Positions 1,238 to 54,160 of a stretch of 64,000 bases of DNA are shown here, piece by piece. The stretch's first letter is position 1. Every line of letters starts with the position of its first letter. The translations under genes and the position numbers were made by a program. Below the pieces are notes generated by a model. That model saw only the letters and a program-made list of their open reading frames with translations, made no database searches and had not been told where the DNA came from. The DNA is from an uncultured Chromatiales bacterium (GTDB lineage Bacteria; Pseudomonadota; Gammaproteobacteria; Poriferisulfidales; Oxydemutatoraceae), in NCBI GenBank assembly GCA_964347615.1, contig CAYFZO010000005.1, positions 34,282 through 98,281 of the forward strand, given 5' to 3'.

Positions 1238-2704
1238 ATGAAACTCAACGTCAAAATAGAAAATTTGGGGAAGCTGTCCCATGCGGATATTCAAATCCGC
1301 AATTTCACGGTGTTCGCCGGGCCGAACAACACCGGGAAGGCCTACGTTTCAAAGATGCTTTATTCCATATTGAACGTAATGAAAACCGAACATTTGGGGG
1401 AAATGCCAAGCAAAAAGGTTTTCCGTGCTGAACAAAGCCTAAAACGATTTGTCAGATATCTACCAGACACCGCGGAGGGAAAAGAAGAGTTTGCCGATGA
1501 AGCAAAAAACTATCTGAAAAAAATGTACGCGCTCTTTAGGGTCGCTAACGAGAAAAGCTTTGACCAAAAACTCAAGAGGATGAACGCCACGTTGGAAGAA
1601 AGGAAAGAAACAGCAAATAAAATCCTTTCTCTCTTCAAGGAGTTCAAAGATAAGCTGCCTGCAGAAGAAAGCGAGGAGCCGTCAGCCAAGGATTCCCGGT
1701 TTTGGCGCCTCCGCTTAGAATTTAATCTGGAGGATTTATCAAGAACAGCGAGTGAAAATGCGGAGCAGCTGGTCAGCGGTGAATTATCAGAAGATTTCAG
1801 GAGAAATCTAAGGGGGAATTTTGCAATCGAAGACGAAAGCAGCTTACGGTACAGCGGAAAAGAAACCGCTACAATCTCCTGTGAAGATTTAGGAACGTTT
1901 TCCATAGATGAATCGGGTGGCTCGGTTGAATGCCCCGTTGAAAACATCAAGAAATTTCAGGAATTCCCCAAACTCATTTATTTAGAATCACCCATTTACT
2001 GGAAGATGAAAGACGCTTTGGAGGCGTCTCGTTTCCGAGAAAGACGTGCGCTTGGTGTTCCTCAATACTTTTATGATTTGATGGCGGAGCTTCGAGAGAC
2101 AAAGGGCGAGGATTCCCGACCAATCTCTCATTTTCACGAATTGCACGGGCAAGTTTCTGAGGTGGTTGCACAGAGGCCTTTCATCTCAAATGAAAACCCT
2201 CGACAAATAGACCTCTTTCATGAGCTACATGAAGACATTACGGAAACAATCGGGGGGAAACTTGTCGTCTCAGACGAAAGCGAGCTGCTGTTTCAAGAGA
2301 ACGGACGAGAGTACCCGTTATCCGTTGCAGCGATGGGGGTAGTGAATTATGGAATGCTCGGTTTGCTCATAGAAAGAGGCATCATGGACGAAACGACTTT
2401 CCTGTTCATGGATGAACCGGAAGCCCACCTGCATCCCGAATGGCAGGTCAAAATAGCACGGACCCTTTTTGAGCTGGCAAAACTAGGAACCCGCGTGATT
2501 ATCGCAACCCACAGCGTTGACATCCTGGAATGGCTTGCGGTCGAAATCAAAGAGAACCCGGCCAGCGAGAAAATCATCGCCCTCAATCACTTCTCTACGA
2601 AAGGGAAAACCATGGACCACGAAGGGGATCTCGCGAGAAAACAATCCGCCATAATAGTCGAATTGACCGAACCCTTTTACGACCTCTACATGCGAGATCT
2701 GTAA
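1238..2704 (+). CDS. AAA_15/AAA_21-family (ABC/SMC-like, OLD-family-type) ATPase.
   Basis: 488 aa with a Walker A motif (FAGPNNTGKA), a Walker B/D-loop (TFLFMDEPEAHLHPEW) and an H-loop (IIATHSVD). Its GC is visibly lower than the flanks. Its stop codon abuts the ATG of the next gene (TAAATG), indicating an operon. Confidence 0.8.
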   Translation: MKLNVKIENLGKLSHADIQIRNFTVFAGPNNTGKAYVSKMLYSILNVMKTEHLGEMPSKKVFRAEQSLKRFVRYLPDTAEGKEEFADEAKNYLKKMYALFRVANEKSFDQKLKRMNATLEERKETANKILSLFKEFKDKLPAEESEEPSAKDSRFWRLRLEFNLEDLSRTASENAEQLVSGELSEDFRRNLRGNFAIEDESSLRYSGKETATISCEDLGTFSIDESGGSVECPVENIKKFQEFPKLIYLESPIYWKMKDALEASRFRERRALGVPQYFYDLMAELRETKGEDSRPISHFHELHGQVSEVVAQRPFISNENPRQIDLFHELHEDITETIGGKLVVSDESELLFQENGREYPLSVAAMGVVNYGMLGLLIERGIMDETTFLFMDEPEAHLHPEWQVKIARTLFELAKLGTRVIIATHSVDILEWLAVEIKENPASEKIIALNHFSTKGKTMDHEGDLARKQSAIIVELTEPFYDLYMRDL

Positions 2705-3343
2705 ATGTTCCTTAAGCCTTTTCACGAAGAAATTAAGCTGGATGAGAGCGGGCGTTCAAGTGGAAACGTTGAACTGCAGAACCCACCTACAGGCATTAAA
2801 GCAATCAAGGTTGATGGCAAAACTGAGTCATCTAACGGTCGAAGCTTATACGCTGAAGTGGGGTGCGGAAGTTGCCATTGTTGTGACTACATCTTGCTGA
2901 AACGCGAAGGAGAAAAAGGAAAGCGAATTCATTTTATAGAAATCTCTGATTTAGGAGAGAAAGAACATTTTTTACATAAGAAGTATAGGTACGTTAAAAA
3001 TCAAGAAAATAGACGCCGAATAGTACGCGAAGAAATTATCCGCGAGCAAGTCTTAAAAGTTTATGGAAGCCTCGTCGTTTTTCTTCGGCTACCTATCATC
3101 TCTAAAGCAGATTGGAGAAGAATTCCATTACAAAAACGTGACATAAATAAAGAAAAAAAAGCAATTTGCGGCAAAGAAGCAGTTTTTTGTTTTGTTATAA
3201 GTGGTCTTAAAACACCGAAAGGTACTCAATCTTTTGCTTATTTAAAAAACCGTTTAAGACCCGACAGATTCCCTTCATTTATATCCCACGTTCGCGTAAT
3301 GGGGGAGAAAGAATTTATAAAAGAGTACCGTCAGAGCGGCTAA
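2705..3343 (+). CDS. Uncharacterised 212-aa Cys-rich basic protein, partner of the upstream ATPase. No fold recognised by eye.
   Basis: The ORF is tightly coupled to the ATPase gene and is extremely AT-rich (about 37% GC by rough count) inside a ~65% GC genome. Motifs include EVGCGSCHCCDY, LKREGEKGKRIHF and CGKEAVFC. It is lysine/arginine-rich. Confidence 0.6.
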   Translation: MFLKPFHEEIKLDESGRSSGNVELQNPPTGIKAIKVDGKTESSNGRSLYAEVGCGSCHCCDYILLKREGEKGKRIHFIEISDLGEKEHFLHKKYRYVKNQENRRRIVREEIIREQVLKVYGSLVVFLRLPIISKADWRRIPLQKRDINKEKKAICGKEAVFCFVISGLKTPKGTQSFAYLKNRLRPDRFPSFISHVRVMGEKEFIKEYRQSG

Positions 3344-3383
3344 CCAAACTTTCAAGCAGCAACGTTACGTGCATACCGCGCAA

Positions 3384-3412
3384 GGACGTCCTGGACGTCA
3401 CCGGGGTTTTTT
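3384..3412 (+). terminator. Putative rho-independent terminator (possibly bidirectional) in the 80-bp gap between the cassette and the convergent iscX.
   Basis: GACGTCCTGGACGTC forms a palindromic stem, followed by ACCGGGG and a run of six T. The spacer before the T-run is suboptimal. Confidence 0.35.
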
Positions 3413-3421
3413 GAATCGACG

Positions 3422-3622
3422 TCACGCTTTCTCCTCGATCCACATCATCTGAATCGCTTCAAGCACTTTCTCGCCGCAGTGCGCGGGGTCGTCGTCGAAC
3501 TCCTCGAGCGCACAGACCCATTCGCGCAAGTCGGTGAAGCGCACGTATTGCGGATCCACGTCGGGATGCGCTTCGTCGAGCGCGATGGCGACGTCCCTGC
3601 TGTCGGTCCATTTAAGCCCCAT
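3422..3622 (-). CDS. iscX: Fe-S assembly protein IscX.
   Basis: [66 protein letters not shown] is near-identical in pattern to E. coli IscX ([24 protein letters not shown]...). The ORF-track entry 3422-3841 is this gene with a spurious in-frame 5' extension into fdx. Confidence 0.85.
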   Translation of the reverse strand: [66 protein letters not shown]

Positions 3623-14784: not shown

Positions 14785-16236
14785 TTACCCGGTGAATGTC
14801 CGCGGGAACGACGCCGTTCCATGACGACCAGAATCAGGCTGGTCCAACATAGGGCGTGCAACGTAAACACGTATTTTCCCGTGGAAAATATGTTGTCGGA
14901 CTGCAAAAACAGCTGCGCCCAGATAAAGACCAGCATCCCGATTAATGAACGTCACGTCGCGGAAAAGCTTGACCCGCCCCCTGCGCGCCTGAACCGCGGC
15001 AAACCACGTGGACCCGACGAGCGCAAGCGCCGAGAGACCCGTGAATACCTTGCCCGCCGTAAAGTGCGCGTCCAGTCCCGCAGTATAAAAAGCATGGAGG
15101 TTCCTGACCCTGAGAAGTTCGTATATGAAACCCCTCACCGACTCCCAGTCCAGCGCACCCACCAAGTTTCCAAGTTCACGGTGATAGTTCCGCCCTGCCC
15201 TTCCCGTCATCCCTTTCGACAAAACCTCGGTCACCCACCCGCTTTCATAAGTGATTGTCCCGTCATAAAACCGCGACCACAGAACCGGGTCGCTGATCAA
15301 CCATTCATAAACGACGATTTTGGCCAATTGCCCGAGCATGAAGCAGGCCACAAAACCGACTATATAAAGCCCGACACACGCGACCGCCGACTTGATTTCC
15401 CCAGACGTGAAATAAATGAACGACCCGATCAGGGTCATTATAAGAATCGTATGACCGTCAAGCGTCCACACGTAAGACGACACCATCCCGGCGATAAAGC
15501 AAAAGAGGCGCAAGGATCCGGATGAAGCACGACTCCCGGCCAATAAAACCAAAACGACCGCCGACGCAACGGCCCACAAATGCCCCAGACCATCCGCCGA
15601 ACCGGGAAAATACCGGATGCCCGAAAAGAAAAAGCCGAAAACAATCAACGGAGAAAAAAGCAGAAACGTTCTCGGGTAAAACCGCAACAGAAAAACCGCC
15701 AGCAACAAATAAGCGAAATAAGTGACGGTTTTCGTCATTTCCCTGATCTCAAAAACCGAGAAATAACGCAACGCGACGGCGTGTAACGCCTTGCCTCCCC
15801 ACCAGTACCGGGTCTTCTCCAACCGGTCCCCAAACTCGGCGCCATCCACTGCAACCGAGGCCAACGCCGCACAATAAGCGCCGGGTGCTCTGTCGAAGCT
15901 CTTCAACAGCACGGCGTCAAGAAACGGAGTGGCGACGTCCGTTCTCGTGTAACCCCCTCTCAGTATCATCAGCGACGTCTGGCACTGTGCAAATCTACGT
16001 GTACCCCCTAAAAGCGTTATCGGATACGGCGTCTCGGAATACATAACCCACAAACTCGGGGAGTGCGTCCGCCCAAGATTGTTTTCCTTGAAAGCCGTCT
16101 CAAACCTTTGCTTCCCCAGCTCGTAAGGCAGTTGGTTACCGAGATAGTGCAGGAAAAAGAAAAGCACCGTGCCTGAAACGGCAACGGCGGCATACGTGAA
16201 AAACGATTTCAAGGAAAGTCCGGGAAGGCTGTGCAT
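14785..16236 (-). CDS. Polytopic integral membrane protein, duplicated copy 1 (483 aa from MHSLPG; an in-frame upstream ATG at 16380 would give 531 aa).
   Basis: There are multiple hydrophobic helices (YFAYLLLAVFLLRF, LLFSPLIVFGFFFSG, LWAVASAVVLVLLAG, ILIMTLIGSFIYF, VACVGLYIVGFVACFML) plus soluble N- and C-terminal regions. The apparent plus-strand ORFs over the same DNA are low-complexity antisense artefacts. Confidence 0.6.
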   Translation of the reverse strand: MHSLPGLSLKSFFTYAAVAVSGTVLFFFLHYLGNQLPYELGKQRFETAFKENNLGRTHSPSLWVMYSETPYPITLLGGTRRFAQCQTSLMILRGGYTRTDVATPFLDAVLLKSFDRAPGAYCAALASVAVDGAEFGDRLEKTRYWWGGKALHAVALRYFSVFEIREMTKTVTYFAYLLLAVFLLRFYPRTFLLFSPLIVFGFFFSGIRYFPGSADGLGHLWAVASAVVLVLLAGSRASSGSLRLFCFIAGMVSSYVWTLDGHTILIMTLIGSFIYFTSGEIKSAVACVGLYIVGFVACFMLGQLAKIVVYEWLISDPVLWSRFYDGTITYESGWVTEVLSKGMTGRAGRNYHRELGNLVGALDWESVRGFIYELLRVRNLHAFYTAGLDAHFTAGKVFTGLSALALVGSTWFAAVQARRGRVKLFRDVTFINRDAGLYLGAAVFAVRQHIFHGKIRVYVARPMLDQPDSGRHGTASFPRTFTG

Positions 16237-16333
16237 GACCGACGTTTCACACCTCTCCTGAAAAGGCACTCCAAAGACGCTCCAGAACCACGGGCTGCCG
16301 AAAAACGAAACGACAAAACGGAAAACCGAATGG

Positions 16334-16503
16334 GCGTCGGAATCCGCCGCTTTCCTGAAAAAGAACCGCCCGCCCGACAACGGCAGAGCGACCAGTGTCA
16401 GATAAGAATAATCTGCATGAGCGTCGGAATCCGCTGCTTTCCTGGAAAAGAACCGCCCGCCCGCCGACGGCAGAGCGACCAGTGTCAGATAAGAATAATC
16501 TGC
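16334..16503. repeat. Local tandem direct repeat, 2 x 83 bp with a 4-bp spacer, present in copy 1 only.
   Basis: GCGTCGGAATCCGC(C/T)GCTTTCCTG(A/G)AAAAGAACCGCCCGCCCG(A/C)C(A/G)ACGGCAGAGCGACCAGTGTCAGATAAGAATAATCTGC occurs twice. Copy 2 retains only part of one unit. Confidence 0.8.
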
Positions 16504-16576
16504 GGGTTTTCATTGTTCAATCGCGAAGCCGTAATGAACTCAAAGGATGAAATCGCCGGGGCGGCGAAAGCCCACT

Positions 16577-16849
16577 CTACCACGGGAGGCGCCGCCGACT
16601 TGCTTGCCGCCGGCGTTCCTCGTCGAGACGTACGTGCGCCAAGCGGTCGATCAAATGCAGCGAATACGCAAGCAACTCGGCAATCGCGTCGAGGCGCTGG
16701 GCGTTGGTTCGGGTCTCGAATCCTTCGTTCTCAAGGTTGAGCAGACTTTGTGAGGCGAGCTTCCATACGCTCATCGCCAGCGCACTCCCGGTTTCGCCGC
16801 ATTCGCGCGCGCGGTCTTTCCGGTTCCATTTGGTCTTAAGTCGCACCAT
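16577..16849 (-). pseudogene. Truncated duplicate (the first 82 codons) of the 14200-14745 gene, created by the duplication junction.
   Basis: The 90-aa ORF is identical to the N-terminus of the 181-aa protein through ...LDEERRR. It then reads junction-derived QASRRRLPW before a stop. Confidence 0.55.
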
Positions 16850-16888
16850 GCTCGTTTCTCCATGCCGACGTCTTATCTTGTCTGCAAT

Positions 16889-18340
16889 TTACCCGGTGAA
16901 TGTCCGCGGGAACGACGCCGTTCCATGACGACCAGAATCAGGCTGGTCCAACATAGGGCGTGCAACGTAAACACGTATTTTCCCGTGGAAAATATGTTGT
17001 CGGACTGCAAAAACAGCTGCGCCCAGATAAAGACCAGCATCCCGATTAATGAACGTCACGTCGCGGAAAAGCTTGACCCGCCCCCTGCGCGCCTGAACCG
17101 CGGCAAACCACGTGGACCCGACGAGCGCAAGCGCCGAGAGACCCGTGAATACCTTGCCCGCCGTAAAGTGCGCGTCCAGTCCCGCAGTATAAAAAGCATG
17201 GAGGTTCCTGACCCTGAGAAGTTCGTATATGAAACCCCTCACCGACTCCCAGTCCAGCGCACCCACCAAGTTTCCAAGTTCACGGTGATAGTTCCGCCCT
17301 GCCCTTCCCGTCATCCCTTTCGACAAAACCTCGGTCACCCACCCGCTTTCATAAGTGATTGTCCCGTCATAAAACCGCGACCACAGAACCGGGTCGCTGA
17401 TCAACCATTCATAAACGACGATTTTGGCCAATTGCCCGAGCATGAAGCAGGCCACAAAACCGACTATATAAAGCCCGACACACGCGACCGCCGACTTGAT
17501 TTCCCCAGACGTGAAATAAATGAACGACCCGATCAGGGTCATTATAAGAATCGTATGACCGTCAAGCGTCCACACGTAAGACGACACCATCCCGGCGATA
17601 AAGCAAAAGAGGCGCAAGGATCCGGATGAAGCACGACTCCCGGCCAATAAAACCAAAACGACCGCCGACGCAACGGCCCACAAATGCCCCAGACCATCCG
17701 CCGAACCGGGAAAATACCGGATGCCCGAAAAGAAAAAGCCGAAAACAATCAACGGAGAAAAAAGCAGAAACGTTCTCGGGTAAAACCGCAACAGAAAAAC
17801 CGCCAGCAACAAATAAGCGAAATAAGTGACGGTTTTCGTCATTTCCCTGATCTCAAAAACCGAGAAATAACGCAACGCGACGGCGTGTAACGCCTTGCCT
17901 CCCCACCAGTACCGGGTCTTCTCCAACCGGTCCCCAAACTCGGCGCCATCCACTGCAACCGAGGCCAACGCCGCACAATAAGCGCCGGGTGCTCTGTCGA
18001 AGCTCTTCAACAGCACGGCGTCAAGAAACGGAGTGGCGACGTCCGTTCTCGTGTAACCCCCTCTCAGTATCATCAGCGACGTCTGGCACTGTGCAAATCT
18101 ACGTGTACCCCCTAAAAGCGTTATCGGATACGGCGTCTCGGAATACATAACCCACAAACTCGGGGAGTGCGTCCGCCCAAGATTGTTTTCCTTGAAAGCC
18201 GTCTCAAACCTTTGCTTCCCCAGCTCGTAAGGCAGTTGGTTACCGAGATAGTGCAGGAAAAAGAAAAGCACCGTGCCTGAAACGGCAACGGCGGCATACG
18301 TGAAAAACGATTTCAAGGAAAATCCGGGAAGGCTGTGCAT
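16889..18340 (-). CDS. Polytopic integral membrane protein, duplicated copy 2 (483 aa).
   Basis: Over 99% identical to copy 1 at the protein level, with a single L7F difference in the compared region. Confidence 0.6.
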   Translation of the reverse strand: MHSLPGFSLKSFFTYAAVAVSGTVLFFFLHYLGNQLPYELGKQRFETAFKENNLGRTHSPSLWVMYSETPYPITLLGGTRRFAQCQTSLMILRGGYTRTDVATPFLDAVLLKSFDRAPGAYCAALASVAVDGAEFGDRLEKTRYWWGGKALHAVALRYFSVFEIREMTKTVTYFAYLLLAVFLLRFYPRTFLLFSPLIVFGFFFSGIRYFPGSADGLGHLWAVASAVVLVLLAGSRASSGSLRLFCFIAGMVSSYVWTLDGHTILIMTLIGSFIYFTSGEIKSAVACVGLYIVGFVACFMLGQLAKIVVYEWLISDPVLWSRFYDGTITYESGWVTEVLSKGMTGRAGRNYHRELGNLVGALDWESVRGFIYELLRVRNLHAFYTAGLDAHFTAGKVFTGLSALALVGSTWFAAVQARRGRVKLFRDVTFINRDAGLYLGAAVFAVRQHIFHGKIRVYVARPMLDQPDSGRHGTASFPRTFTG

Positions 18341-25320: not shown

Positions 25321-25397
25321 GGGCGCGTAGCTCAGCCGGTCAGAGCACCGTCTTCACATGGCGGGGGTCGCTGGTTCGAATCCAGCCGCGCCCACCA
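25321..25397 (+). tRNA. tRNA-Val (anticodon CAC), with encoded CCA.
   Basis: It was hand-folded. The acceptor stem is GGGCGCG/CGCGCCC and the D-arm is GCTC-AGCCGGTCA-GAGC. The anticodon stem is CCGTC/GGCGG with loop TTCACAT (U33, anticodon CAC, A37). The T-arm is GCTGG-TTCGAAT-CCAGC, followed by discriminator A and CCA. Confidence 0.85.
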
Positions 25398-38567: not shown

Positions 38568-41500
38568 CTAAGCGCGCTTCCCGCCGAGCGGCCAACCGCC
38601 GTGCGAATCAATCTCCTGATCGATGCGCCCCATGACCCGCGGAGTCTCGGCCAAGGCGGCGCATATCCGGCGGTAATGGGTGACCTCCTCGAACGAGAGG
38701 GTCTTGCCCTTTCGATCTTTCAGCCACCTCTCCACAGGGCGATAACCGCCGATGGCAAACGCCCAAGTGTCGGGCGCGACACCCTCGAAGCACTGCTCGC
38801 CGTTGATCCATACTTGCCCCGGTGTGTCATCGGCGGGCGAGACGTAGCGAGCCCTTTCTACGTGATTCGTGCCCTCACACGCAAAGGCGGGCTTGTCATC
38901 TGCTTCTGCCGTCATCAAGTGCAAAGCAGTAAGGCGCTGCCCCAAACCGACGAGTATCGAGAACAGTTCTTGGCTTTGGGTCAGTGGCACGCGAGGGAAA
39001 TCAGACTTCAGGAAGTCAGCATAACGACGGCGGTATTCCGGGCTGTGCAATACGGCGTAGATGTAATGGAACACGTCCTCCGGGCCAAACGAAGCCTTTA
39101 AATCGCCGGCGCTTTCAGGGGTAAATTTGAGATTCAAGGCAGCACTGGCCGCTTCAATGAATTCCTCGTCGATATTAGCTTGGCGCACTCTGTTCGCTTT
39201 ACCCTCTCCTTTCTCCTTATAGAGGTACAGAGGGAAAAGATGGTTGCCCTCCTTGAGAGAGGCGGCGTGAAGCTGAGCGAGGATCTGCGAAACAAAAACA
39301 TGCTTCCAGCCTCCGACTATTTCTGTTGACCTCGTTGTCAAGAGACCCAAATTCTTCCCGGCCAGCATCTGCTCCATGACTTTTTTGCGAGGCCTACAAA
39401 GAAAACCGCTCGATTTCCCCGTGTAGCAGGTAAACCGATTGTCAAACGGTCTGTACAGAATTGGGACAACGTGAGTGTCAATATCAGGATGCGAGCGTAA
39501 ATCTTCTTGCGCCAGCGACACTTTCCAATCATGCACGTCCTTTCCTAAGTTGTAGCGAGCACGGACTTTTTCTTCTGAGAGCCCCACGAAATCAGACGTG
39601 ACGCGCCGCATGTCTTCACGCGTCCACTGAATCGTCAGCTTGTCTCGTGCGGTCGCAATTCCCACCGAGTGAACGGGGAAAACGTCGGTTATTCTGACGC
39701 CCGTCTCGTACTCGTCATTCATCTTTTCATCGCGCGGCACAAACAGGTAGAGCGGTGATTTCGGCGAGAGCGGCGTCCATTCGGTGGTTGCAACGTGGTT
39801 GGCGGCCAACCACCCGTACTTCCCGCGGTTCGGTCCGCTTTCACGCTCGCCCCACAAATCGGCGTGGAACACTTGAGCTAAAGCACCGTCGGCGTTCTTC
39901 CGCTTAACGAACAAACCGATCGCAACTCCCTGCTGAATATCAAACACGTTCTCATCCCTGCCGCCGCCCGGCGGACTTTCCTTTCTCTTGGTATTGCCGT
40001 GCAGATCCAGCAGATAAATCTCGTCGAAGGTCTGCATCAGAGTTTGGCGCATCCCGCGAAAAGTCGGGTTATCCAAGTAGCTGTGGTTGGTAACAAAACC
40101 AAGCACCCCCTCACCGGTGCGCTCAATTTTCCATTGAGCAACACGAATAAACTTGACGTAATCGTCATTCAGCCATTTGGGATTTCTCTCACCGAGCGGA
40201 TGGTTATCCACCTCGAAATAATTGCCGATCCTTTCTCTGACTTGGCGGCCACGCAGCAACCCCTTAATCCATTCACCCTGATTGGAAGAATGACCGGAAT
40301 AAGGCGGGTTGCCCAGCACCACCATCACCGGCTTATCACGCTTCACGGCGTCTGCGCTCGCCGCCTCACGCACGATTTCGTGAGCAAACAGCCCGAGGCC
40401 GGCTTCCCGATGCGCTTCTTCGAGCGCGTTGGTGAGAAAAACCCCTAAGCGCTGATTGGCCGGCATTTTGAATCCGCCGTTGGTTTCGCCAATCCCGAGG
40501 GCGAGCGCCAGCTTCAGATGGCAAATCGCGTAGGGAGCCATCATCAGCTCGAACCCGAAAAGGCGCTCCAGCAGATTGTCCTGCACGTAATCGGGCCAAG
40601 CGCCGCCGAGACCTTTTTCCTTGACCGTCTCGCGGATGCGAGCAACCACCTCGCACAGGAACGTTCCCGTGCCCACCGCCGGGTCGAGGATCAGCACGCG
40701 CGGACACGATTGCTGCTCTCCGGTATAAGTCTTGAACGTAACCGTGGACTTATCGGCAAGCCCGTCCTTAACGTCGAGCCGGTTACGAAGCAGGTGATCC
40801 ACGCTTCGCACGATATAGGAAACCACCGGTTCAGGCGTGTAATAAACGCCGCGCACTTTACGCAGTCCTGGATCGTAGGCGGCCAGAAAGTCTTCGTAGA
40901 AGTGCACCACCGGGTCGTCGCGCCGATTGCGGCTGCCGAAATCAGCAAGGACGGCTGCCATGTCCGCCCGGTGAAGCAGCAACGCGAGGTCGTCCACGAC
41001 CCACGCGATTTTTGGATGGCAAGCGGGCCCGGCGACGTTGCCGAAAACGTCCCGCAGGAAAGGTGTCGTCTCGACGAAAGTCGCGGATTGGCGCGTGAAC
41101 GGCCCCGCCTGCGCAGGGTCATGCAGACAACGCGCCGCGAACAGACCATAGACGGCGGTCTGTGCCTGCAGATCGGCGAATTGAGCGGGCGACAGGTCGG
41201 GAATCAAAACTTCGCGGTAGTCGTTATGCAAGTCATGCAACGGCCCGGACCCCCTTTCCTCCTTGAGAATATCCTTGATACCGTCACGCAACATTCGAGC
41301 CTTGCTCGCCATCTGTTCGGCAAGAGCGCCGGAATTGCCGATTGGCGGCGGGTCGGCTGCAAAAAACGCACCGAACAGCTCGCCGACCTGCTCGGCTCCG
41401 GCTTTATCAAAAGCAATTCCGTCCGGGCCGGCGAGACGTGCAAGGCGTGTATCCATGCGCGGCTCGCCTTGCGCATACCAGCGAAACTCCAGATAGTCGG

Positions 41501-46801: not shown

Positions 46802-48355
46802 GTGAACGATGCCGCCCCCCCGACCGCGACGGCGCGGCGTACGATGCTCGTCATACTCGACGGCTTCGGCGTCAGCCTGAACGAGGCCAACAACGCCGTC
46901 CACATGGCGAAAACGCCGCGGCTGGACGCGCTGTTCGAACGCTACCCGCATACCTTGCTCGAAGCTTCGGGCCCCGCGGTCGGGCTGCCCGCCGGACAAA
47001 TCGGCAACTCCGAGGTCGGGCACATGACGATGGGATGCGGCTGCGTGATCGAACAGGATTTGGTGCGCATCAACAACGAGATCGAATCCGAAGCGTTCTA
47101 TGAAAATCCCTCGCTGATTTACACGCTGAAACAAGCCAAGAAAGCCAAACGTCCGATACACCTGCTCGGGCTGGTCTCGGACGGCGGCGTGCATTCGCAC
47201 GTCACCCACCTCGAAGCATTGATCGAGATGTGCCGACAGCAGGAAGTTGCGCCCGTGTTGCACGCCGTCACCGACGGACGCGACACGTCGCCGCGCGAAG
47301 CGATGCAGTTCATCGAACGCGTCGAGCCGCAAATCAAGAACGCGGGCGGTGAGATCGCGACGGTGATGGGACGCTATTACGCGATGGACCGCGACCACCG
47401 CTGGGCGCGCACCGAACGCGCTTGGCGCGCAATCGCGCTCGGCAAAGGCACCGAACGCGAAAACGCCGCCGAGGCGATTCGCCTGTCCTACGAAGCGGAC
47501 TGCGGCGATGAGTTCATCGAGCCTTGCGTGCTGCCCGCGGCGCGACCGCTCGACGAAGAAGACCACGTCATCTTGTTCAACTTCCGCAACGACCGCCCGC
47601 GACAACTGATCAAGGCGCTGGTGTCGCCGACGTTCGACTCCTTCAACCGCGGCGACGCGCCGGTGGTCAACGTCACGACGATGACCGAAGTGGACAAGAC
47701 GTTTCCGTGCCTGGTCGCGATTGCCGCGGTGAGACCGAAAATCACGCTGGCCAAGACCATCAGCGAATACGGCCTCAAGCAGTTCCACTGCGCCGAGACC
47801 GAGAAGTATCCGCACGTGACCTTCTTCTTCAACGGCGGCACCGAAGAGCCGCTGCCCGGCGAGGAACGCGAACTGATTCCGTCGCCGAAAGTGCCGACTT
47901 ATGACACCAAGCCCGAGATGAGCGCGAAAGAAGTCGCCGACGCGGTGGTGCAAGCGCTGGCGAACCCGGAATTCTCGTTTATCGTCGTCAACTTCGCCAA
48001 TACCGACATGGTCGGACACACCGCGGTGGCCGACCCGATCATCAAGGCGGTCGAAACCGTGGACCGCGAGACCGGCCGCCTTGTGGACGCCGCGACCGAG
48101 CACGGCTGGTCGGTGGTGATTACCTCAGACCACGGCAACTGCGACGAGATACTGAACCCCGAGACACAACAACCCAACACGCGGCACACGATGAACCCGG
48201 TGCCGTTCCTGATCGTGGACGGCGAAGACCATCACCTCGCCGGGGGATGCAACATCAGCAGCATCGCCCCGACCGTGCTGGAACTGATGGGGCTGGAAGC
48301 GCCGAAAGAGATGCTGGCACCGTCGGTGATCGTGAAGAAGAAAGGGAAGAAGTGA
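46802..48355 (+). CDS. gpmI: 2,3-bisphosphoglycerate-independent phosphoglycerate mutase.
   Basis: LVILDGFGVS...NSEVGHMTMG...GLVSDGGVHSH...ADMVGHT...ITSDHGNCD. Confidence 0.95.
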   Translation: MNDAAPPTATARRTMLVILDGFGVSLNEANNAVHMAKTPRLDALFERYPHTLLEASGPAVGLPAGQIGNSEVGHMTMGCGCVIEQDLVRINNEIESEAFYENPSLIYTLKQAKKAKRPIHLLGLVSDGGVHSHVTHLEALIEMCRQQEVAPVLHAVTDGRDTSPREAMQFIERVEPQIKNAGGEIATVMGRYYAMDRDHRWARTERAWRAIALGKGTERENAAEAIRLSYEADCGDEFIEPCVLPAARPLDEEDHVILFNFRNDRPRQLIKALVSPTFDSFNRGDAPVVNVTTMTEVDKTFPCLVAIAAVRPKITLAKTISEYGLKQFHCAETEKYPHVTFFFNGGTEEPLPGEERELIPSPKVPTYDTKPEMSAKEVADAVVQALANPEFSFIVVNFANTDMVGHTAVADPIIKAVETVDRETGRLVDAATEHGWSVVITSDHGNCDEILNPETQQPNTRHTMNPVPFLIVDGEDHHLAGGCNISSIAPTVLELMGLEAPKEMLAPSVIVKKKGKK

Positions 48356-48361
48356 GCAATT

Positions 48362-48490
48362 CAAGGCAGGCTTGAATATGGAGACTTCTTCCCGCCATGT
48401 TAAAGGCTGGCTTGAATATGGAGGCTTCTCCCCGCCATATTAAAGGCTGGCTTGAATATGGAGGCTTCTCCCTGCCATATTAAAGGCTGC
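48362..48490. repeat. Three tandem ~43-bp repeats, each with an internal 7-bp inverted repeat (AATATGG...CCATATT), immediately downstream of the gpmI stop.
   Basis: AAGGC(A/T)GGCTTGAATATGGAG(A/G)CTTCT(T/C)CC(C/T)GCCAT(G/A)TTAAAG occurs three times. Confidence 0.8.
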
Positions 48491-48495
48491 GTTCA

Positions 48496-48729
48496 ATGCT
48501 GAATTCCAAGACACAACAATTGAACACGCGGCACACGATGAACCCGGCGCCGTTCCTGATCGTGGACGGCGAAGACCATCACCTCGCCGGGGGATGCAAT
48601 ATCAGCAGCATCGCCCCGACCGTGCTGGAACTGATGGGACTGGAAGCGCCGAAAGAGATGCTGGCGCCGTCGGTGATCGTGAAGAAGAAAGGGGGTGGGG
48701 TGAGCCCGAAAATAAACAATCAAACTTAA
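48496..48729 (+). pseudogene. Diverged duplicate of the last ~65 codons of gpmI (3'-end remnant).
   Basis: ...TQQLNTRHTMNPAPFLIVDGEDHHLAGGCNISSIAPTVLELMGLEAPKEMLAPSVIVKKKGG is about 95% identical at the DNA level to 48148-48345 (gpmI C-terminus TQQPNTRHTMNPVPFLIVDGEDHHLAGGCNISSIAPTVLELMGLEAPKEMLAPSVIVKKKGKK). It has a different, AT-rich tail. Confidence 0.7.
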
Positions 48730-48733
48730 CGCT

Positions 48734-49237
48734 TCAGGCCAGCTCCTTTATCGCCTTTTCTGCCACATCAAACAAAGCCTCTACCTTTTTATTATCGTTC
48801 TCAATATCCATAGACCGTCTTACGATTCTTACAACAGTAAAAATTGAGAAGACTAAAGTTACAACGCTTACGGAAAGCAAAAATCTTGTTCCCCAGATTA
48901 CGAATGGAAAAGAAAACAGTATTCCGAGATGAGCTAATAATGCGAAACTAATAATGACAAGAAGAAATCCGCTAATGATCATGCTCCGATTCTTGTCTTC
49001 TGAAGAATAAGTCTCCATTCTATCCACTGCCTTAGAAAAATCGGCATAACAAACTTCCTCCAACATCCTCTCTCCGCCGGGCAGGCGTCTGAGCTTCTCC
49101 TCGAGCCGAGCGAAATTTTGCCTTTGATTTTCTAGGCTAATATTTATGGGGGCCTGAACCTGCCGAATAGCCAGTAATACAAACGAAGACGCGATAATGA
49201 CAGCGTTTAGCGCATTGCTTGCCAGTGAATCCACCAC
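48734..49237 (-). CDS. Hypothetical small membrane protein (167 aa, 2-3 TM helices) in an AT-rich island.
   Basis: The hydrophobic segments are ALNAVIIASSFVLLAI, IISGFLLVIISFALLAHLGILFSFPFVIW and LLSVSVVTLVFSIFTVV. Its GC is much lower than the core. Confidence 0.45.
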   Translation of the reverse strand: MVDSLASNALNAVIIASSFVLLAIRQVQAPINISLENQRQNFARLEEKLRRLPGGERMLEEVCYADFSKAVDRMETYSSEDKNRSMIISGFLLVIISFALLAHLGILFSFPFVIWGTRFLLSVSVVTLVFSIFTVVRIVRRSMDIENDNKKVEALFDVAEKAIKELA

Positions 49238-49361
49238 TTATTCCTACATTAAAGGTCAGCAAGAAGCTTACTGCGAACTGCTTAAAAGCACAGGGACTTG
49301 ACGCCCTAAACGCAAACCGAAAAGCTCAGCAACTACGGTTTTAAGCGAAACAGAACTAGCT

Positions 49362-49901
49362 CTAATTTCCGCTTGCGGTTTGTTGCGCTTGAAATTTCTC
49401 TGGGAACAACCGGTGCTTTGCGCCTGTCAGCATTTCTCCTAGAATGGGATCGTTAAAACAAGCAATTGCTTCTTTTGTTACATCGTCTTTTTCAAGACGG
49501 TACCTCTTGTCTCCGACCAAGATGAAATGAGGATAGCCTGCATAAAACTCGGATTTGACGCCTATCTTTAATTTTCCGTTATCGGACTCATCCACCGCTT
49601 TAGCAAAATCGTTGCCCTTCATATCTTCGTCGTTGGAAACCGCGACCAAAACTTCAGTTTTCTCCAATGCACTTTTGACACTATCCACCAGCTGGTTGTA
49701 AAAATCCTTATTGAGGGTTCCGCTATATATACAGACTTGCTCCTTTTTGTCTTCCGCAATCTTCAGCAAGTTGTCGAAAAGAATTTTTGCATGAGGGCGA
49801 GACAGGTTCGTTAATACATTTTCGCTCTCTTTCTTGCGATATTTCTCAACTATTTTTTCATATTTAGATTTAGTTTTCATTTTTGGTACTCTCATTATCA
49901 A
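49362..49901 (-). CDS. Hypothetical protein (179 aa) in an AT-rich island.
   Basis: MKTKSKYEKIVEKYRKKESEN...VCIYSGTLNKDFYNQLVDSVKSALEKTEVLVAVSNDEDMKGNDFAKAV... No family recognised by eye. It is lysine-rich and low GC. Confidence 0.5.
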   Translation of the reverse strand: MIMRVPKMKTKSKYEKIVEKYRKKESENVLTNLSRPHAKILFDNLLKIAEDKKEQVCIYSGTLNKDFYNQLVDSVKSALEKTEVLVAVSNDEDMKGNDFAKAVDESDNGKLKIGVKSEFYAGYPHFILVGDKRYRLEKDDVTKEAIACFNDPILGEMLTGAKHRLFPEKFQAQQTASGN

Positions 49902-50211
49902 CTTCGTCCAGCACCACGTTTTCAGGGTGCGAACACGTACGCCCCGAAGAACAAAATCGGGGGCGTGTTAAAAAATCAAACTGTTTTCCCTGGAAGCCAT
50001 TTCTGCCCCCACATCAGAAATGGGGGTAGGCAAGTGTATTACAGACGCACAAAAGCTATCAACAATTATCCTTTCCCCAAATGGAAAGCCTAGTTTCAAT
50101 GAAAAAACTAGATTGTTCTTGAATCAGCCAAGCTTCCCAGTAACACATTGATAGAAAAGAAAATCGGTGTCGCCGAAACAGGCTTCTCAAAGCCACCCGC
50201 TTCACCCCCAA

Positions 50212-51291
50212 TCAACCATCCGCCGAAAACAAGTCAAACAGCAGACGGTTGATGTAGTAATTGCTGCGTCCGATTTTCGCTTTCTCCAGGAACCCCTTCT
50301 CGACCAGCTGTTCCAGATACTTGGTCGCGGTGATGTAAGTAACGCCTAAATCCTCACTGACGAATCCTCTCTTGGTATAGACGTGCTTGAACAGGTTGTT
50401 GAGCAGGTCCTGGCTGTAAATATTCGGCAGCTCCCTGCGGATGCGGTGTTTGTATTCCTGCATCAGCGTTTTAATTTTTCCGATTAAAGAGATGGTGAAA
50501 CCGGCGGTCTGTTCAACGCCGTCAAGCATGTACAGCAGCCACGGTTCCCACTCTCCGCTCGTCCGCACGTCTTGCAGCTGGCGGTAATACTCCTGTTTGT
50601 CCCGAATGATGTAACGGCTGAGATAAAGCACGGGCAAGTCGAGCAAGCCTTTGAAAACGAGGTACAGAACGTTCAGGATGCGACCGGTGCGGCCGTTGCC
50701 GTCGTAGAAAGGGTGGATGCTCTCGAAGCGATGATGAATCAACGCCATCTTCACCAACGGGTCGGTGTCGGAGTCGTCGGTGTTGATGTAATCAACCAAC
50801 TCGGCCATCAGTCGCTCGACTTCCCGCGCATCCTGCGGCGGGGTGTAAATCACTTCGTCGGTTTGGACGTTCTTGATGACGGTGCCGGGCAATTTACGCA
50901 AGCCCGCGTCGTTCTTTTCCAGCACCTGCTGAAGCGACAAAATGTCCCCAAGTCGAATAATCCGGTTTTCTCGGACCGACTCAAAACCCTGTTGCAGGGC
51001 ATCGGCGTAGTCACGCACTTCCTTAGCCGCGGGACCGACGCTTACTTTGGGAGAAACTCCCGCTTTGTACAACTCGTCGTAAGTCGTCACGATGTTCTCC
51101 ACGGCCGAGCTGTCTTTCGCTTCCTGCAACGTCAGCGTGCTGATGAGTATGGCTTCGTTGGGAATGGTCGCCGTGGCGCCTTTCAGCTCGGCCAAACAAC
51201 GGGAGGCCGAAACGACTTTTCTCAATACGGCATTGCTCTCCAAGCCGGCGGCAGACGACAAGGGGGCAAGAAGTAGAGGGTCGGTCAACAT
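50212..51291 (-). CDS. fic: Fic/DOC-family (AMPylation-fold) protein with a C-terminal winged-helix domain.
   Basis: The Fic core motif is HPFYDGNGRTGR (HxFx(D/E)GNGRxxR). The length and layout are typical of Fic family proteins, and the C-terminal wHTH region is ...VSEDLGVTYITATKYLEQLVEKGFL. Confidence 0.85.
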   Translation of the reverse strand: MLTDPLLLAPLSSAAGLESNAVLRKVVSASRCLAELKGATATIPNEAILISTLTLQEAKDSSAVENIVTTYDELYKAGVSPKVSVGPAAKEVRDYADALQQGFESVRENRIIRLGDILSLQQVLEKNDAGLRKLPGTVIKNVQTDEVIYTPPQDAREVERLMAELVDYINTDDSDTDPLVKMALIHHRFESIHPFYDGNGRTGRILNVLYLVFKGLLDLPVLYLSRYIIRDKQEYYRQLQDVRTSGEWEPWLLYMLDGVEQTAGFTISLIGKIKTLMQEYKHRIRRELPNIYSQDLLNNLFKHVYTKRGFVSEDLGVTYITATKYLEQLVEKGFLEKAKIGRSNYYINRLLFDLFSADG

Positions 51292-51294
51292 GGC

Positions 51295-51560
51295 AGGCTA
51301 TTATATAGAAAATGCTGATTTCTATATAATAGAAAGACGACCTCTATAGATTTATCCCGTTTCTATATATATCTTTAGTCACAATAGATAGCCGTATTAT
51401 ATAAAAAACCCCAATTTCTATATAATAGAAAGACGACCTCTATAGATTTATCCCATTTCTATATATATCTTTGGTTACATAGATAGCCGTATTATATAGA
51501 AAATCCCGATTTCTATATAATAAAAAGCCGACCTCTATAGATTTCTCAGTTTTCTATGCA
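51295..51560. repeat. Three tandem ~95-bp AT-rich direct repeats containing the near-palindromic core TTTCTATATAATAGAAA, upstream of fic.
   Basis: ATTTCTATATAATAGAAAGACGACCTCTATAGATTTATCCC(G/A)TTTCTATATATATCTTT... recurs with a period of about 95 bp (starting near 51316, 51412 and 51508). Confidence 0.8.
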
Positions 51561-51635
51561 ATAGGAGACCGGCACCCCGCCCGCAGGGCAAGGACGCCAC
51601 GTCGCTTCGCCTGAAGCCTCCCGGCCCCTAAAAAC

Positions 51636-51944
51636 CTACCGCCAATAATCGTTGGCGATTGCGATGGTCTTGAATTCCCTCGCGACGAGTTCCGCCGCTT
51701 CCATCAGCAGCGCGGGGTCGTCCTCATACTCCTTGCGAACCTTCATCTTGATTTCGGGGCTGCGTTGAATCGCGCCGATGGTTTTCCTCACGATCTTGAT
51801 CGCAAGCATCCGCCCTTCCAGCGGCGTCTTCGTGATGAGGCTCGGCATGTAGTCCTCGCTTTTCTGCTCCTGCGCCACAGCGACCTGAGTGGACGCGGCG
51901 GCCACGACGGCGGCAAGCACCAGCAGTTTCAATGTCTTGTTCAT
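51636..51944 (-). CDS. Hypothetical secreted/periplasmic protein (102 aa, Sec signal peptide).
   Basis: MNKTLKLLVLAAVVAAASTQVAVAQEQ... It has core-like GC. The start is taken at the ATG at 51944. Confidence 0.5.
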   Translation of the reverse strand: MNKTLKLLVLAAVVAAASTQVAVAQEQKSEDYMPSLITKTPLEGRMLAIKIVRKTIGAIQRSPEIKMKVRKEYEDDPALLMEAAELVAREFKTIAIANDYWR

Positions 51945-52090
51945 GGCGTTCCTCCGGTTATCCGTGAAAATGAACGCACCGAGCATATCAAAAGCAAATC
52001 ACGCTCGGCGGGTGCTCGCAACCGTTCGGTCACCAAACCTCTCCCCCCCACTTGAGACAACCCCCGCCGGGCGGCTAACATGCTGCACCA

Positions 52091-54160
52091 ATGCTTCCCA
52101 TCACCGAACTTCGCGGCGTCGGCGACGCGGTTGCCGAGAAACTCGAGCGCCTCGGCATCCATCACGTCGAGGACTTGCTGTTCCACCTGCCGCTGCGCTA
52201 CCAAGACCGCACCCGCGTCCATCCGATCAACACCTTGAGTCCCGGCCAGGAGGTGTTGGTCGAGGGTGCAATCCAGCAGACCCGCGTCGTCTATGCGCGC
52301 CGACGCATGATGCTGGTCGCCATCGCCGACGGCACGGGCACGTTGACGCTGCGCTTCTTCCATTTCTCGACGGCGCAGCAGAACAGCCTGCGCAAGGGCG
52401 TACGTATCTGCTGCTTCGGCGAAGTCCGCAGGAGCCAGTCGCAGCTCGAAATGATTCATCCTGAGTACCAGTTCGTCAGCGCGCACGGCAACGCGCATCT
52501 GGACAGGGGCTACACGCCGATCTACCCGGCCACCGAGGGGCTAAGCCAGTTCAGCCTGCGCAAGTTCACCGGCGAAGCGCTGGCGTGGTTGTCGTCGCCC
52601 GACAACAACCTCGAGGAATTGCTGCCGCCGGCGGTGCTCGCCGAGGAGGGGGCGGTCTCGCTGCAGGACGCGATCCGTTACGTCCATCGCCCGCCCGCCG
52701 ACGCCGACGTCGAGTTGCTGCAGACCGGCGAGCACCCGATGCAGAAACGGCTGGCGTTCGAGGAGATGCTGTCGCATTCGTTGAGCCTCAAGCGGATGCG
52801 CGCCGACACCAAGCGTCAACGCGCGCGGGCGTTGAAAACCGAAGGCAAGTTGCTGGCTCAGCTGAAGGAGCGTCTGCCGTTCGAGCTGACCGCGGCGCAA
52901 CGCAAGGTCATAGAAGACGTTCGCGCCGACGTGCGCGAGGCGGCGCCGATGATGCGTCTGGTGCAGGGCGACGTCGGTTCGGGCAAGACCTTGGTCGGCG
53001 TGGCGGCGATGCTTGAAGCGGTCGAGGCGGGTTGTCAGGCGGCGATGATGGCACCGACCGAAATCCTCGCCGATCAGCATTACCGCAACCTCAAGGAGTG
53101 GTTCGGCCCGTTCGAAATCGGCATCGGCGCAATCCTCGGCAAGCAGAAAGTACGCGAGCACCGCAACGCGTTGCGCCAAGCACGCACCGGCGAGATAGAC
53201 ATCGTGGTCGGCACCCACGCCTTGTTTCAGGAGAAGGTCGAGTTCGCCCGCCTCGCGTTGATCGTCGTGGACGAGCAGCACCGCTTCGGCGTGCACCAGC
53301 GCCTCGCGCTCAAGCAAAAAGGCGAGAACGGCGACCTCCAGCCGCATCAGCTCATCATGACCGCCACGCCGATCCCGCGCAGCCTTGCGATGACGATGTA
53401 CGCCGACCTCGACTACTCGGTGATCGACGAGATGCCTCCCGGGCGACTGCCGGTCAAGACTTTCGCCCTGGCCGACACCCGCCGCAACGAGCTCATCGAG
53501 CGGGTGCGCAAGACCTGCGCCGAAGACGGGCAAACCTACTGGGTCTGCCCGTTGATCGAGAAGTCCGAAACGCTGAACTACGAGACCGCCGAAGCGACCT
53601 ACGACCGGCTCAAGCGCGCGATGCCCGAAATCAAGATTCAACTCATCCACGGACGGATGAAACCCGAGGAGAAAGAGGAGGCGATCGCCTTGTTCAAGCA
53701 GGGGGGAATTCAGCTGCTGGTCGCAACCACCGTGATCGAGGTCGGCGTGGACGTCCCCGACGCAAACCTGATCGTGATCGAGAACGCCGAACGCTTCGGG
53801 CTTGCTCAGCTGCACCAGTTGCGCGGACGGGTCGGGCGCAGCGGCAAGCAGGCGATGTGCGCGCTGCTTTACCATCCGCCGTTGTCGGGCACCGCGCGGC
53901 GCCGCCTTAACGTGATGCGCGAGACCAACGACGGCTTTGAGATCGCGCGCGAGGACATGAAGATCCGCGGGCCCGGCGAAATCCTCGGTACACGTCAGAC
54001 CGGCGAGATGCAATTCCGCATCGCCGATCTCACGCGCGACGCGAAGCAGCTTGAGCGGGTGCTCAAGACTTCCGAGCGGATGCTCGAAGCGCACCCGGAA
54101 GTCTGCGGCAAGTTGATTCGCCGCTGGCTCGGCGAGGCGGCGCGCTACGCCGAGGTGTGA
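52091..54160 (+). CDS. recG: ATP-dependent DNA helicase RecG.
   Basis: A wedge domain is followed by helicase motifs: Walker A GDVGSGKT, DEQHRFG and QLRGRVGRS. Confidence 0.95.
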   Translation: MLPITELRGVGDAVAEKLERLGIHHVEDLLFHLPLRYQDRTRVHPINTLSPGQEVLVEGAIQQTRVVYARRRMMLVAIADGTGTLTLRFFHFSTAQQNSLRKGVRICCFGEVRRSQSQLEMIHPEYQFVSAHGNAHLDRGYTPIYPATEGLSQFSLRKFTGEALAWLSSPDNNLEELLPPAVLAEEGAVSLQDAIRYVHRPPADADVELLQTGEHPMQKRLAFEEMLSHSLSLKRMRADTKRQRARALKTEGKLLAQLKERLPFELTAAQRKVIEDVRADVREAAPMMRLVQGDVGSGKTLVGVAAMLEAVEAGCQAAMMAPTEILADQHYRNLKEWFGPFEIGIGAILGKQKVREHRNALRQARTGEIDIVVGTHALFQEKVEFARLALIVVDEQHRFGVHQRLALKQKGENGDLQPHQLIMTATPIPRSLAMTMYADLDYSVIDEMPPGRLPVKTFALADTRRNELIERVRKTCAEDGQTYWVCPLIEKSETLNYETAEATYDRLKRAMPEIKIQLIHGRMKPEEKEEAIALFKQGGIQLLVATTVIEVGVDVPDANLIVIENAERFGLAQLHQLRGRVGRSGKQAMCALLYHPPLSGTARRRLNVMRETNDGFEIAREDMKIRGPGEILGTRQTGEMQFRIADLTRDAKQLERVLKTSERMLEAHPEVCGKLIRRWLGEAARYAEV

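Follow-up and report, generated by a model that had tools for sequence, protein, structure and literature searches.

Why does a compact, AT-rich pair of genes stand on the opposite strand between the housekeeping genes ndk and iscX of an uncultured Chromatiales bacterium? We addressed this question in a 64,000-nucleotide stretch of its genome (GenBank assembly GCA_964347615.1, contig CAYFZO010000005.1, positions 34,282 to 98,281), referred to here as the window. Gene A (window positions 1238–2704, + strand) encodes a 488-amino acid (aa) ATP-binding cassette (ABC) ATPase of the SMC/Rad50/OLD/PtuA type in which residues ~56–195 form a long helical insert, and gene B (2705–3343, + strand) encodes a 212-aa protein with a predicted, divergent restriction-endonuclease (REase) fold, a putative nuclease effector. 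The TAA stop codon of gene A abuts the ATG start codon of gene B (TAAATG, 2702–2707) and both flanking genes lie on the − strand, just as an original prediction, made from the letters of the window, had described. That prediction had also recognized the signature of an antiphage module. The self-contained cassette of an ATPase and a small effector, with its defence-type architecture and context, is upheld by our analysis; the class to which it belongs is already known. We consider that the cassette is probably a horizontally acquired two-gene defence-type module, a candidate system in which an ABC ATPase would act as sensor or regulator and a REase-fold protein as effector.

Both genes were judged to be real rather than chance open reading frames (ORFs), because gene A matches the Pfam families AAA_15 (2e-20) and AAA_21 (1e-12), as had been proposed for it, and has more than 600 homologues, while gene B has 394 representative relatives. 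The PADLOC profiles closest to gene A all describe ATPases of defence systems (PD-T4-4_A, 5e-28; PDC-M47A, 1e-27; HEC-02A, 3e-26), with further matches to NsnB, AriA, Old, GajA and PtuA; together with the predicted structure, these matches bear out its placement in the ATPase class of OLD/Gabija, PARIS and Septu. Every PADLOC match is partial, and the sole full-length profile match is phrog_14430 (1e-72), to which no function is assigned. A PDB sequence search with the gene A profile returned nothing at 1e-5, and a tblastn search of the curated phages of INPHARED and the plasmids of PLSDB returned short matches to the Walker B region and no full-length relatives.

The motifs of an ABC head that had been quoted for gene A are all present. 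Walker A (GPNNTGKA, 1319–1342, + strand; aa 28–35) carries Ala35 where other homologues have Ser or Thr, an anomaly that had been overlooked and to which we return below. The Walker B and D-loop region, FLFMDEPEAHLHPEW, lies at 2399–2443 (+ strand; aa 388–402), and within its D-loop DEPEAHLHPEW (aa 392–402) the residues D392, E393, P394, E395, A396, L398, H399, P400 and W402 are invariant, as are all four residues (A423, T424, H425 and S426) of the H-loop ATHS (2504–2515, + strand; aa 423–426). From its position relative to Walker B, the segment AAMGVVNYG (2327–2353, + strand; aa 364–372), in which A365, G367, N370 and G372 are invariant in the family alignment, is probably the counterpart of the ABC signature motif, which reads SSGQQ in WonA-type ATPases.

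The predicted structure of gene A is nearest to the heads of SMC and Rad50 and also resembles RecN, RecF and SbcC. A helical insert of ~140 residues interrupts the ABC head where SMC and Rad50 have their coiled coil, and the protein terminates at residue 488, right behind the head and a C-terminal helix. These likenesses would suit a housekeeping DNA repair or recombination module of the SbcCD or Rad50-Mre11 kind, with a nuclease that acts on host DNA ends. We regard such a role as very improbable, since the insert falls well short of the length of a Rad50 or SMC coiled coil and the partner is no Mre11/SbcD phosphoesterase. The distribution of the pair, set out below, also speaks against it: the pair is patchy, horizontally transferred and foreign in composition, it is strain-variable and fast-evolving, and it is found on prophages and embedded in restriction-modification systems.

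What, then, is the partner? A word-indexed search with gene B returned only three near-identical relatives. An ATPase homologue with 38% identity (locus L005) is followed by a small ORF that is clearly homologous to gene B (BLASTP, 7e-14), and a partner profile built from the ORFs downstream of the ATPase homologues at 36 genome loci matched 110 clusters in the indexed database. A search of 1.84 billion proteins yielded 394 representative relatives of the partner at E ≤ 1e-3, of which 262 reach E ≤ 1e-10, and the relatives found by profile are all without Pfam domains and informative names. One database protein, P0243 (445 aa), has the partner domain at residues 258–436 behind ~250 extra N-terminal residues, and could be either a fusion or a gene-call artefact. 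Gene B itself has no significant match in Pfam, NCBIfam or PHROGs and falls into no family of the curated libraries, PADLOC included. A PDB sequence search with the partner profile gave chance matches only (e.g., MafB), and a Foldseek search of the gene B model against the PDB gave nothing significant.

The AlphaFold2 model of gene B (predicted local distance difference test score, 83; predicted template modelling score, 0.82) is a small alpha/beta protein with an REase-like predicted fold; the window's copy is a long-branch member of its family, and two insertions in its model are of low confidence. Across ~230 family members four polar residues are essentially invariant, namely D37, D61, E79 and K118 (window numbering). 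D37 (2813–2815, + strand) is the acidic residue of an (M/V)DG motif and is present in 227 of 227 ungapped members. D61 (230/230) belongs to the segment C57-Y62 (CHCCDY, 2873–2890, + strand), where it forms a near-invariant triad with C60 (222/230) and Y62 (220/230), and where conservation is lower at C59 (190/230) and C57 (170/230). D61 directly precedes the strand formed by residues 62–67, and E79 (229/230) lies within the strand 73–82, which places the two acidic residues on consecutive beta-strands of the model, as in PD-(D/E)xK nucleases. The triplet E79-I80-S81 (2939–2947, + strand) is an E-x-[T/S] motif where the canonical E-x-K sits; position 81 is T in 183 members, S in 33, K in 11 and G in 3, and the 11 with K form a minority that retains the canonical motif. 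K118 (3056–3058, + strand; 229/230) stands in an LKVYGS motif within helix 100–132 of the model and may have a catalytic role.

Predicted structure and motif logic thus point to gene B being a highly divergent PD-(D/E)xK-type protein. The partner had been called unassignable; this holds for HNH and TOPRIM/DUF4435, of which we found no match, and for curated families in general, and it no longer holds for the predicted fold, which appears to be that of a divergent, PD-(D/E)xK-like REase. The CGSCHCC cysteine cluster singled out in the original prediction is indeed present in gene B, but it does not define the family. We rejected it as a family-essential Fe-S or Zn site, as C60 alone is conserved and the partners of the prophage clade are without the cluster.

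The association of the two genes is stable, which answers the question, raised earlier, of whether the partner is fixed. A partner of ~185–200 aa follows the ATPase at 33 of the 36 genome loci, usually with a 4-nucleotide overlap with the ATPase stop codon. A partner also follows the ATPase at 14 of 14 prophage-type contigs in IMG/VR, whose ATPases are more distant (25–30% identity). Thirteen of these viral-contig partners match the family hidden Markov model (HMM) with E-values between 1e-11 and 1e-17, and the remaining one (L098) reaches 2.5e-4. The operon is therefore conserved across ATPase divergence down to 25–30% identity, and the prophage clade of the pair, like the window's, is claimed by no named PADLOC system. 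Almost all full-length genome matches are metagenome-assembled genomes (MAGs), of Ca. Spongiihabitans, Poriferihabitaceae, Latescibacterota, Nitrospirales and Arenicellales, and also of Thermodesulfobacteriota, Dehalococcoidia, Terriglobia and Limisphaerales; read from their taxon labels, and not from an enrichment statistic, these hosts are taxa typical of sponge microbiomes.

The GC content of the cassette (0.462 for gene A and 0.388 for gene B) falls well below that of ndk, iscX, fdx and hscA (0.57–0.67) and of the window as a whole (0.606), close to the drop to about 45% and 37% estimated previously. This foreign composition had been taken as a sign of recent horizontal acquisition. The composition stands and the recency does not: four strains share the insertion, at the same locus and with equally low rather than native GC, and the pair is poorer in GC than its flanks at nearly all 36 loci, so that low GC belongs to the module itself and does not prove that it arrived recently. 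Between phyla, ATPase identity reaches 64% at most, with a median of 48% and without taxonomic pattern. We rejected a very recent cross-phylum transfer on the basis of that maximum, and the values fit an older horizontal spread of the pair as far as sequence identity can indicate.

The neighbourhoods of the homologous pairs are likewise informative. At about 10 of 35 loci the pair is found within or next to an Hma-like methylase/helicase system, being placed directly between methylase and helicase at four of them (L008, L018, L025 and L038) and between the two with extra genes at another two (L019 and L029). The families that recur among 126 flanking proteins are N6_N4 methylase (7), ResIII/DEAD (6), AAA_15 (4), pAgo/SIR2 (4) and Schlafen/AlbA_2 (4), the remainder being housekeeping proteins. 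By these neighbour counts, rather than by an enrichment statistic, the pair is associated with defence islands. In a Thermodesulfobacteriota MAG (OY729416.1; loci L005/L038, approximately L005:950-10900), a homologous pair lies within an Hma-like block made up of a split type III-like methylase, a 656-aa AriA/Old-like ATPase, a 170-aa methylase-like fragment, the pair, a 93-aa ORF and an 847-aa DEAD/ResIII helicase; this single island thus holds two different ABC-ATPase genes. In another Thermodesulfobacteriota MAG (OZ244044.1; loci L003/L006), an ATPase homologue is followed by a 61-aa ORF in place of a full partner and is flanked by an M78 peptidase-domain gene and a gene for an 858-aa TIR-STAND NTPase, and this copy may be a degenerate one inside a defence island.

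The same mobility could serve a selfish purpose, namely a toxin-antitoxin-like addiction module or a module for the maintenance or competition of mobile elements, with the nuclease as toxin and the ATPase as its controller. The AAA_21 family is annotated as "putative AbiEii toxin, type IV TA system" (TA, toxin-antitoxin), the pair is horizontally mobile, GC-poor relative to its hosts and found on prophages, and many of its loci are solitary insertions amid housekeeping genes. We nevertheless hold this account to be distinctly unlikely. A repeat search found no terminal inverted or direct repeats around the cassette, no mark of a transposon or integrative element is apparent there, and the window contains no integrase or transposase belonging to it. 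Repeated embedding in Hma-like restriction-modification systems also tells against an addiction module, as does the protection against phage conferred by the analogous pairs WonAB and HEC-02; moreover, the difference from abortive-infection defence is largely semantic.

Given that a defence-type module is the favoured explanation, we asked whether it corresponds to a system that already has a name. WonAB, from the WASA-1 prophage of V. cholerae, consists of an OLD-type ABC ATPase and a variant PD-(D/E)xK nuclease, acts by abortive infection, and is part of a wider "OLD-ABC ATPase + novel REase" group; it requires its ATPase motifs and the nuclease lysine (K71A in WonB), and ATPase mutants lose WonB (PMC12137116). 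The window pair resembles it in being a two-gene operon of an OLD-type ABC ATPase and a small (~145–210 aa) protein, which in the window is a predicted variant PD-(D/E)xK protein. With the caveat of Ala35, gene A has the Walker A, Walker B, D-loop and H-loop of an OLD-type ABC ATPase and stands beside a putative nuclease gene: the Walker A Lys is at residue 34 in both ATPases, and an EPEAHL-type Walker B/D-loop and a THS H-loop are common to the two. WonB and the window partner family have the motif series hDG ... CD[YF] ... hhhE in common, and both families are prophage-borne.

The differences between the two pairs are equally clear. In an alignment of WonB and Novel-REase sequences taken from the supplement of that study, the invariant elements are C-D and E-L-K (PMC12137116). 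The Lys of E-L-K is essential in WonB, whereas most members of the window family have T or S at this position together with the invariant K118 in the following helix. The window ATPase has AMGxxNxG where WonA has SSGQQ, and its helical insert is longer than that of WonA. In hhalign, the partner family and WonB give a weak match (probability 10.8%, E 0.003) in which D37 is aligned with D41, a near-invariant residue of WonB, D61 with D52 and E79 with E69. The WonB HMM matched no partner of the window family, and the family's motifs are absent from the available part of the WonAB and Novel-REase hit tables (PMC12137116). WonB homologues map to PADLOC PDC-M29B and PDC-M47B.

PD-T4-4 combines a PD-(D/E)xK nuclease with a P-loop NTPase (bioRxiv 10.1101/2025.07.10.664194). 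With PDC-M47 it shares the plan proposed for the window pair, an ABC or P-loop ATPase and a PD-(D/E)xK nuclease, and the two provide the top PADLOC matches of gene A. The match to PD-T4-4_A (5.4e-28) falls in two stretches, the best of which spans profile positions 233–367 of 460, and is thus not full-length. A second ATPase in the ndk-iscX gap of the sister strain L001 served as a positive control and matched the same profile at 5.6e-96 over positions 2–455 of 460; its 157-aa partner matches PDC-M47B (1e-6) and, in hhalign, WonB (probability 89%). Gene B has no match to PD-T4-4_B, and the PDC-M47B profile, which the window protein reaches at 5e-4, is matched by just two of 35 family members. 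Because it scores far below the control from the same gap, the window pair belongs to a different family from PD-T4-4.

HEC-02, the Hma-embedded candidate 02, pairs an ABC ATPase with a NERD nuclease and requires both genes, and embedding in Hma systems is the context that was used to find validated defence systems (bioRxiv 10.1101/2024.01.29.577857). The window family is like it in coupling an ABC ATPase to a partner predicted to belong to the PD-(D/E)xK superfamily and in having several Hma-embedded members. HEC-02A profiles, of ~340 aa, match just the C-terminal half of the window ATPase head. The window partner is without HEC-02's (D/E/Q)xK lysine and has no Pfam match to NERD, which is also missing from the 25 most frequent families for 35 partners, and matches to HEC-02B are weak (~3e-3 to 3e-4), limited to few family members and best among the prophage-clade partners (2.6e-4).

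PARIS, Septu or retron PtuAB, and Gabija/OLD belong to the same ATPase superfamily as gene A, by sequence and by predicted structure, and follow the logic of a sensor ATPase and a nuclease that is proposed for the window pair. Their effectors are of other kinds, TOPRIM/DUF4435 in AriB of PARIS and in the OLD/GajA fusions and HNH in PtuB of Septu, and the window partner has none of these. It gave no match to TOPRIM, DUF4435 or AriB, and none to HNH or PtuB; gene A carries no fused TOPRIM, and the Old and GajA profiles match just the stretch from Walker B to the H-loop. An Rfam search over the whole 64 kb window found no retron-type or other non-coding RNA near the cassette. The earlier expectation that the pair is neither a textbook PARIS or Septu nor another named system is therefore borne out by the Pfam and PADLOC profile searches, which leave it unclaimed. 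Since the partner appears to be a divergent REase-fold protein next to an ABC ATPase, the pair can be placed in the two-gene class of WonAB, PD-T4-4 and HEC-02, where these sequence comparisons indicate a separate, unnamed sister family rather than a new kind of system.

How might such a module work? If it resembles WonAB, PARIS, Septu and HEC-02, a dimer of the ATPase would hold or control the nuclease, the variable helical insert of the ATPase would sense a phage-derived cue, and ATP binding or hydrolysis would license the nuclease to cut nucleic acid. The target could be phage DNA, or host RNA or DNA, the latter leading to abortive infection.

The junction itself was compared among four near-identical haplotypes of one sample set (the window, L086, L001 and L002), all of which carry the pair there, in line with the proposal that related genomes would be instructive. 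Its left flank, ndk (437–868, − strand), has a native GC of 0.62 and is 99–100% identical in nucleotides between strains; its right flank, iscX (3422–3622, − strand; GC 0.60), is the final gene of the iscRSUA-hscBA-fdx-iscX operon, and its counterparts in homologous loci match Pfam Fe-S_assembly. The assumption that iscX and ndk are commonly adjacent did not survive comparison: in 69 related metagenome loci, iscX lies ≤6 kb upstream of ndk in 11 and directly adjacent to it in 3. Other ndk-iscX gaps are filled by ordinary housekeeping genes of native GC. The gap of L001 (L001:8176-11888) additionally holds insertion sequence fragments with three ORFs matching Pfam Transposase_mut, the PD-T4-4-like ATPase and the 157-aa WonB/PDC-M47B-like nuclease described above, and a 110-aa ORF, and from this content we conclude that the ndk-iscX junction acts as a strain-variable defence hotspot.

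Between the strains, DNA identity is 97–100% for ndk, iscX, fdx and hscA, 92–94% for the ATPase and 90–93% for the partner. The ratio of nonsynonymous to synonymous substitution rates (dN/dS) is at most 0.10 in the flanks, 0.37–0.75 in the ATPase and 0.57–0.74 in the partner, and dS is two- to three-fold higher in the cassette than in the flanks. Differences cluster in the helical insert, residues 281–320 and residues 441–480 of the ATPase, and in residues 82–104 and 161–205 of the partner; the catalytic cores of both proteins hardly vary. Because the differences cluster outside the catalytic cores, plain decay is a less favoured account than a functional, diversifying locus or allelic recombination.

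In P-loop NTPases, the hydroxyl group of the Walker A Ser or Thr coordinates Mg2+. Among 120 homologues scanned, 115 have S directly after GK, two have T and one has A, and the remaining two fell outside the search pattern. The two T residues are those of the L001 and L002 alleles (GKT); the single A is that of the L086 allele, which is common to the window. Relative to the sister strains, GKA arises by a single ACC-to-GCC change in codon 35 (1340–1342). Because GKA removes the Mg2+-coordinating hydroxyl, the window ATPase may bind ATP yet fail to hydrolyse it, its hydrolysis being weakened or abolished.

It is here that a further explanation has to be weighed, namely that this lineage retains the cassette as a decaying or inactive remnant, a former defence module under relaxed selection whose ATPase no longer hydrolyses ATP. 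The GKA variant, the raised dN/dS and the long branch of gene B with its two low-confidence insertions would all agree with a remnant. We think it unlikely, although less so than the repair or addiction accounts, in view of several features that run the other way: both ORFs are intact in all four strains, all invariant family residues except residue 35 are kept, the sister alleles of L001 and L002 retain GKT, and a clustering of differences that leaves the cores almost unchanged is not the pattern of neutral decay.

Several observations weigh against a defence-type module at this locus. WonAB and HEC-02 protect against phage (PMC12137116; bioRxiv 10.1101/2024.01.29.577857), whereas the window family is known here from its genes alone. 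The E-x-K Lys of PD-(D/E)xK enzymes is replaced by T or S in 94% of partner family members (216/230), and ordinary housekeeping neighbours are found at about two-thirds of the homologous loci. A comparison of ndk with metagenome contigs yielded no close relative whose site is empty (best identity, 77%), which leaves the insertion endpoints undefined. Lastly, a Walker A variant unique among 120 homologues, together with dN/dS of up to 0.75, is compatible with relaxed selection in this lineage.

A more ambitious reading combines a distinct defence family with a rewired nuclease site, a sponge-centred spread and an ongoing arms race; taken jointly, we put this forward only tentatively, as a doubtful though not negligible prospect. 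The site would be rewired in that E-x-[T/S] stands for E-x-K, with an invariant Lys supplied from the following helix and an extra invariant Asp, and this arrangement could give a substrate or chemistry unlike that of WonB-type enzymes, for instance the cleavage of RNA or tRNA. The preferred hosts of the family would be sponge-associated bacteria, drawn from at least eight phyla or classes, and prophages would carry it as well. Diversification of the ATPase sensor insert and of two nuclease surface patches within a single symbiont population would then reflect an arms race.

If active, the pair would add a separate family to the defence class of ABC ATPase and nuclease, although not a new mechanistic category, as the sensor-ATPase and nuclease design is well populated. 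The family, with ~400 clusters at the 50% identity level and more than 600 homologues of the ATPase, is missed by current annotation tools, its effector being without a Pfam, NCBIfam or PADLOC model. It offers a natural comparison for the rearrangement of a PD-(D/E)xK site with the ATPase partner unchanged. Given its concentration in sponge-associated MAGs of several phyla, and its fast divergence within a population beside housekeeping genes that are 97–100% identical, it could serve as a marker of the phage pressure on sponge microbiomes.

The cassette is accompanied by putative expression signals. A consensus scan found a promoter-like site (GTGAAA, an 18-nucleotide spacer and TATAAT; 1143–1172, + strand) 66 nucleotides upstream of the gene A start, which is kept in strains L001 and L002, and a terminator-like hairpin with a T-run (3388–3413, + strand) lies 45 nucleotides past the gene B stop codon and is kept in L002. 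The counts of such promoter- and terminator-like sites in the region are not above shuffled expectation, and their placement alone is suggestive. The stretch from the cassette to iscX (3344–3421) is ~100 bp shorter in the window than its counterparts in L002 (L002:8104-8281) and L086 (L086:3640-3818), and the missing part lies between the terminator and the iscX stop codon.

Elsewhere in the window, the GC content shows milder dips (0.53–0.55) at 15000–18000 and 39000–40000, with a strong AT skew at 15–18 kb, and a single tRNA gene (25321–25394) is the sole Rfam match in the 64 kb. A second low-GC island lies at ~48000–52000 (GC 0.43–0.52, compared with ~0.63), next to recG (52091–54160). It holds three small ORFs without a Pfam match (48594–48932, 48734–49237 and 49362–49901), a Fic/DOC-family gene (50212–51291, − strand) with Fic_N, Fic and SoFic-like_C domains, and a gene for an HTHP haem protein (51636–51986, − strand).

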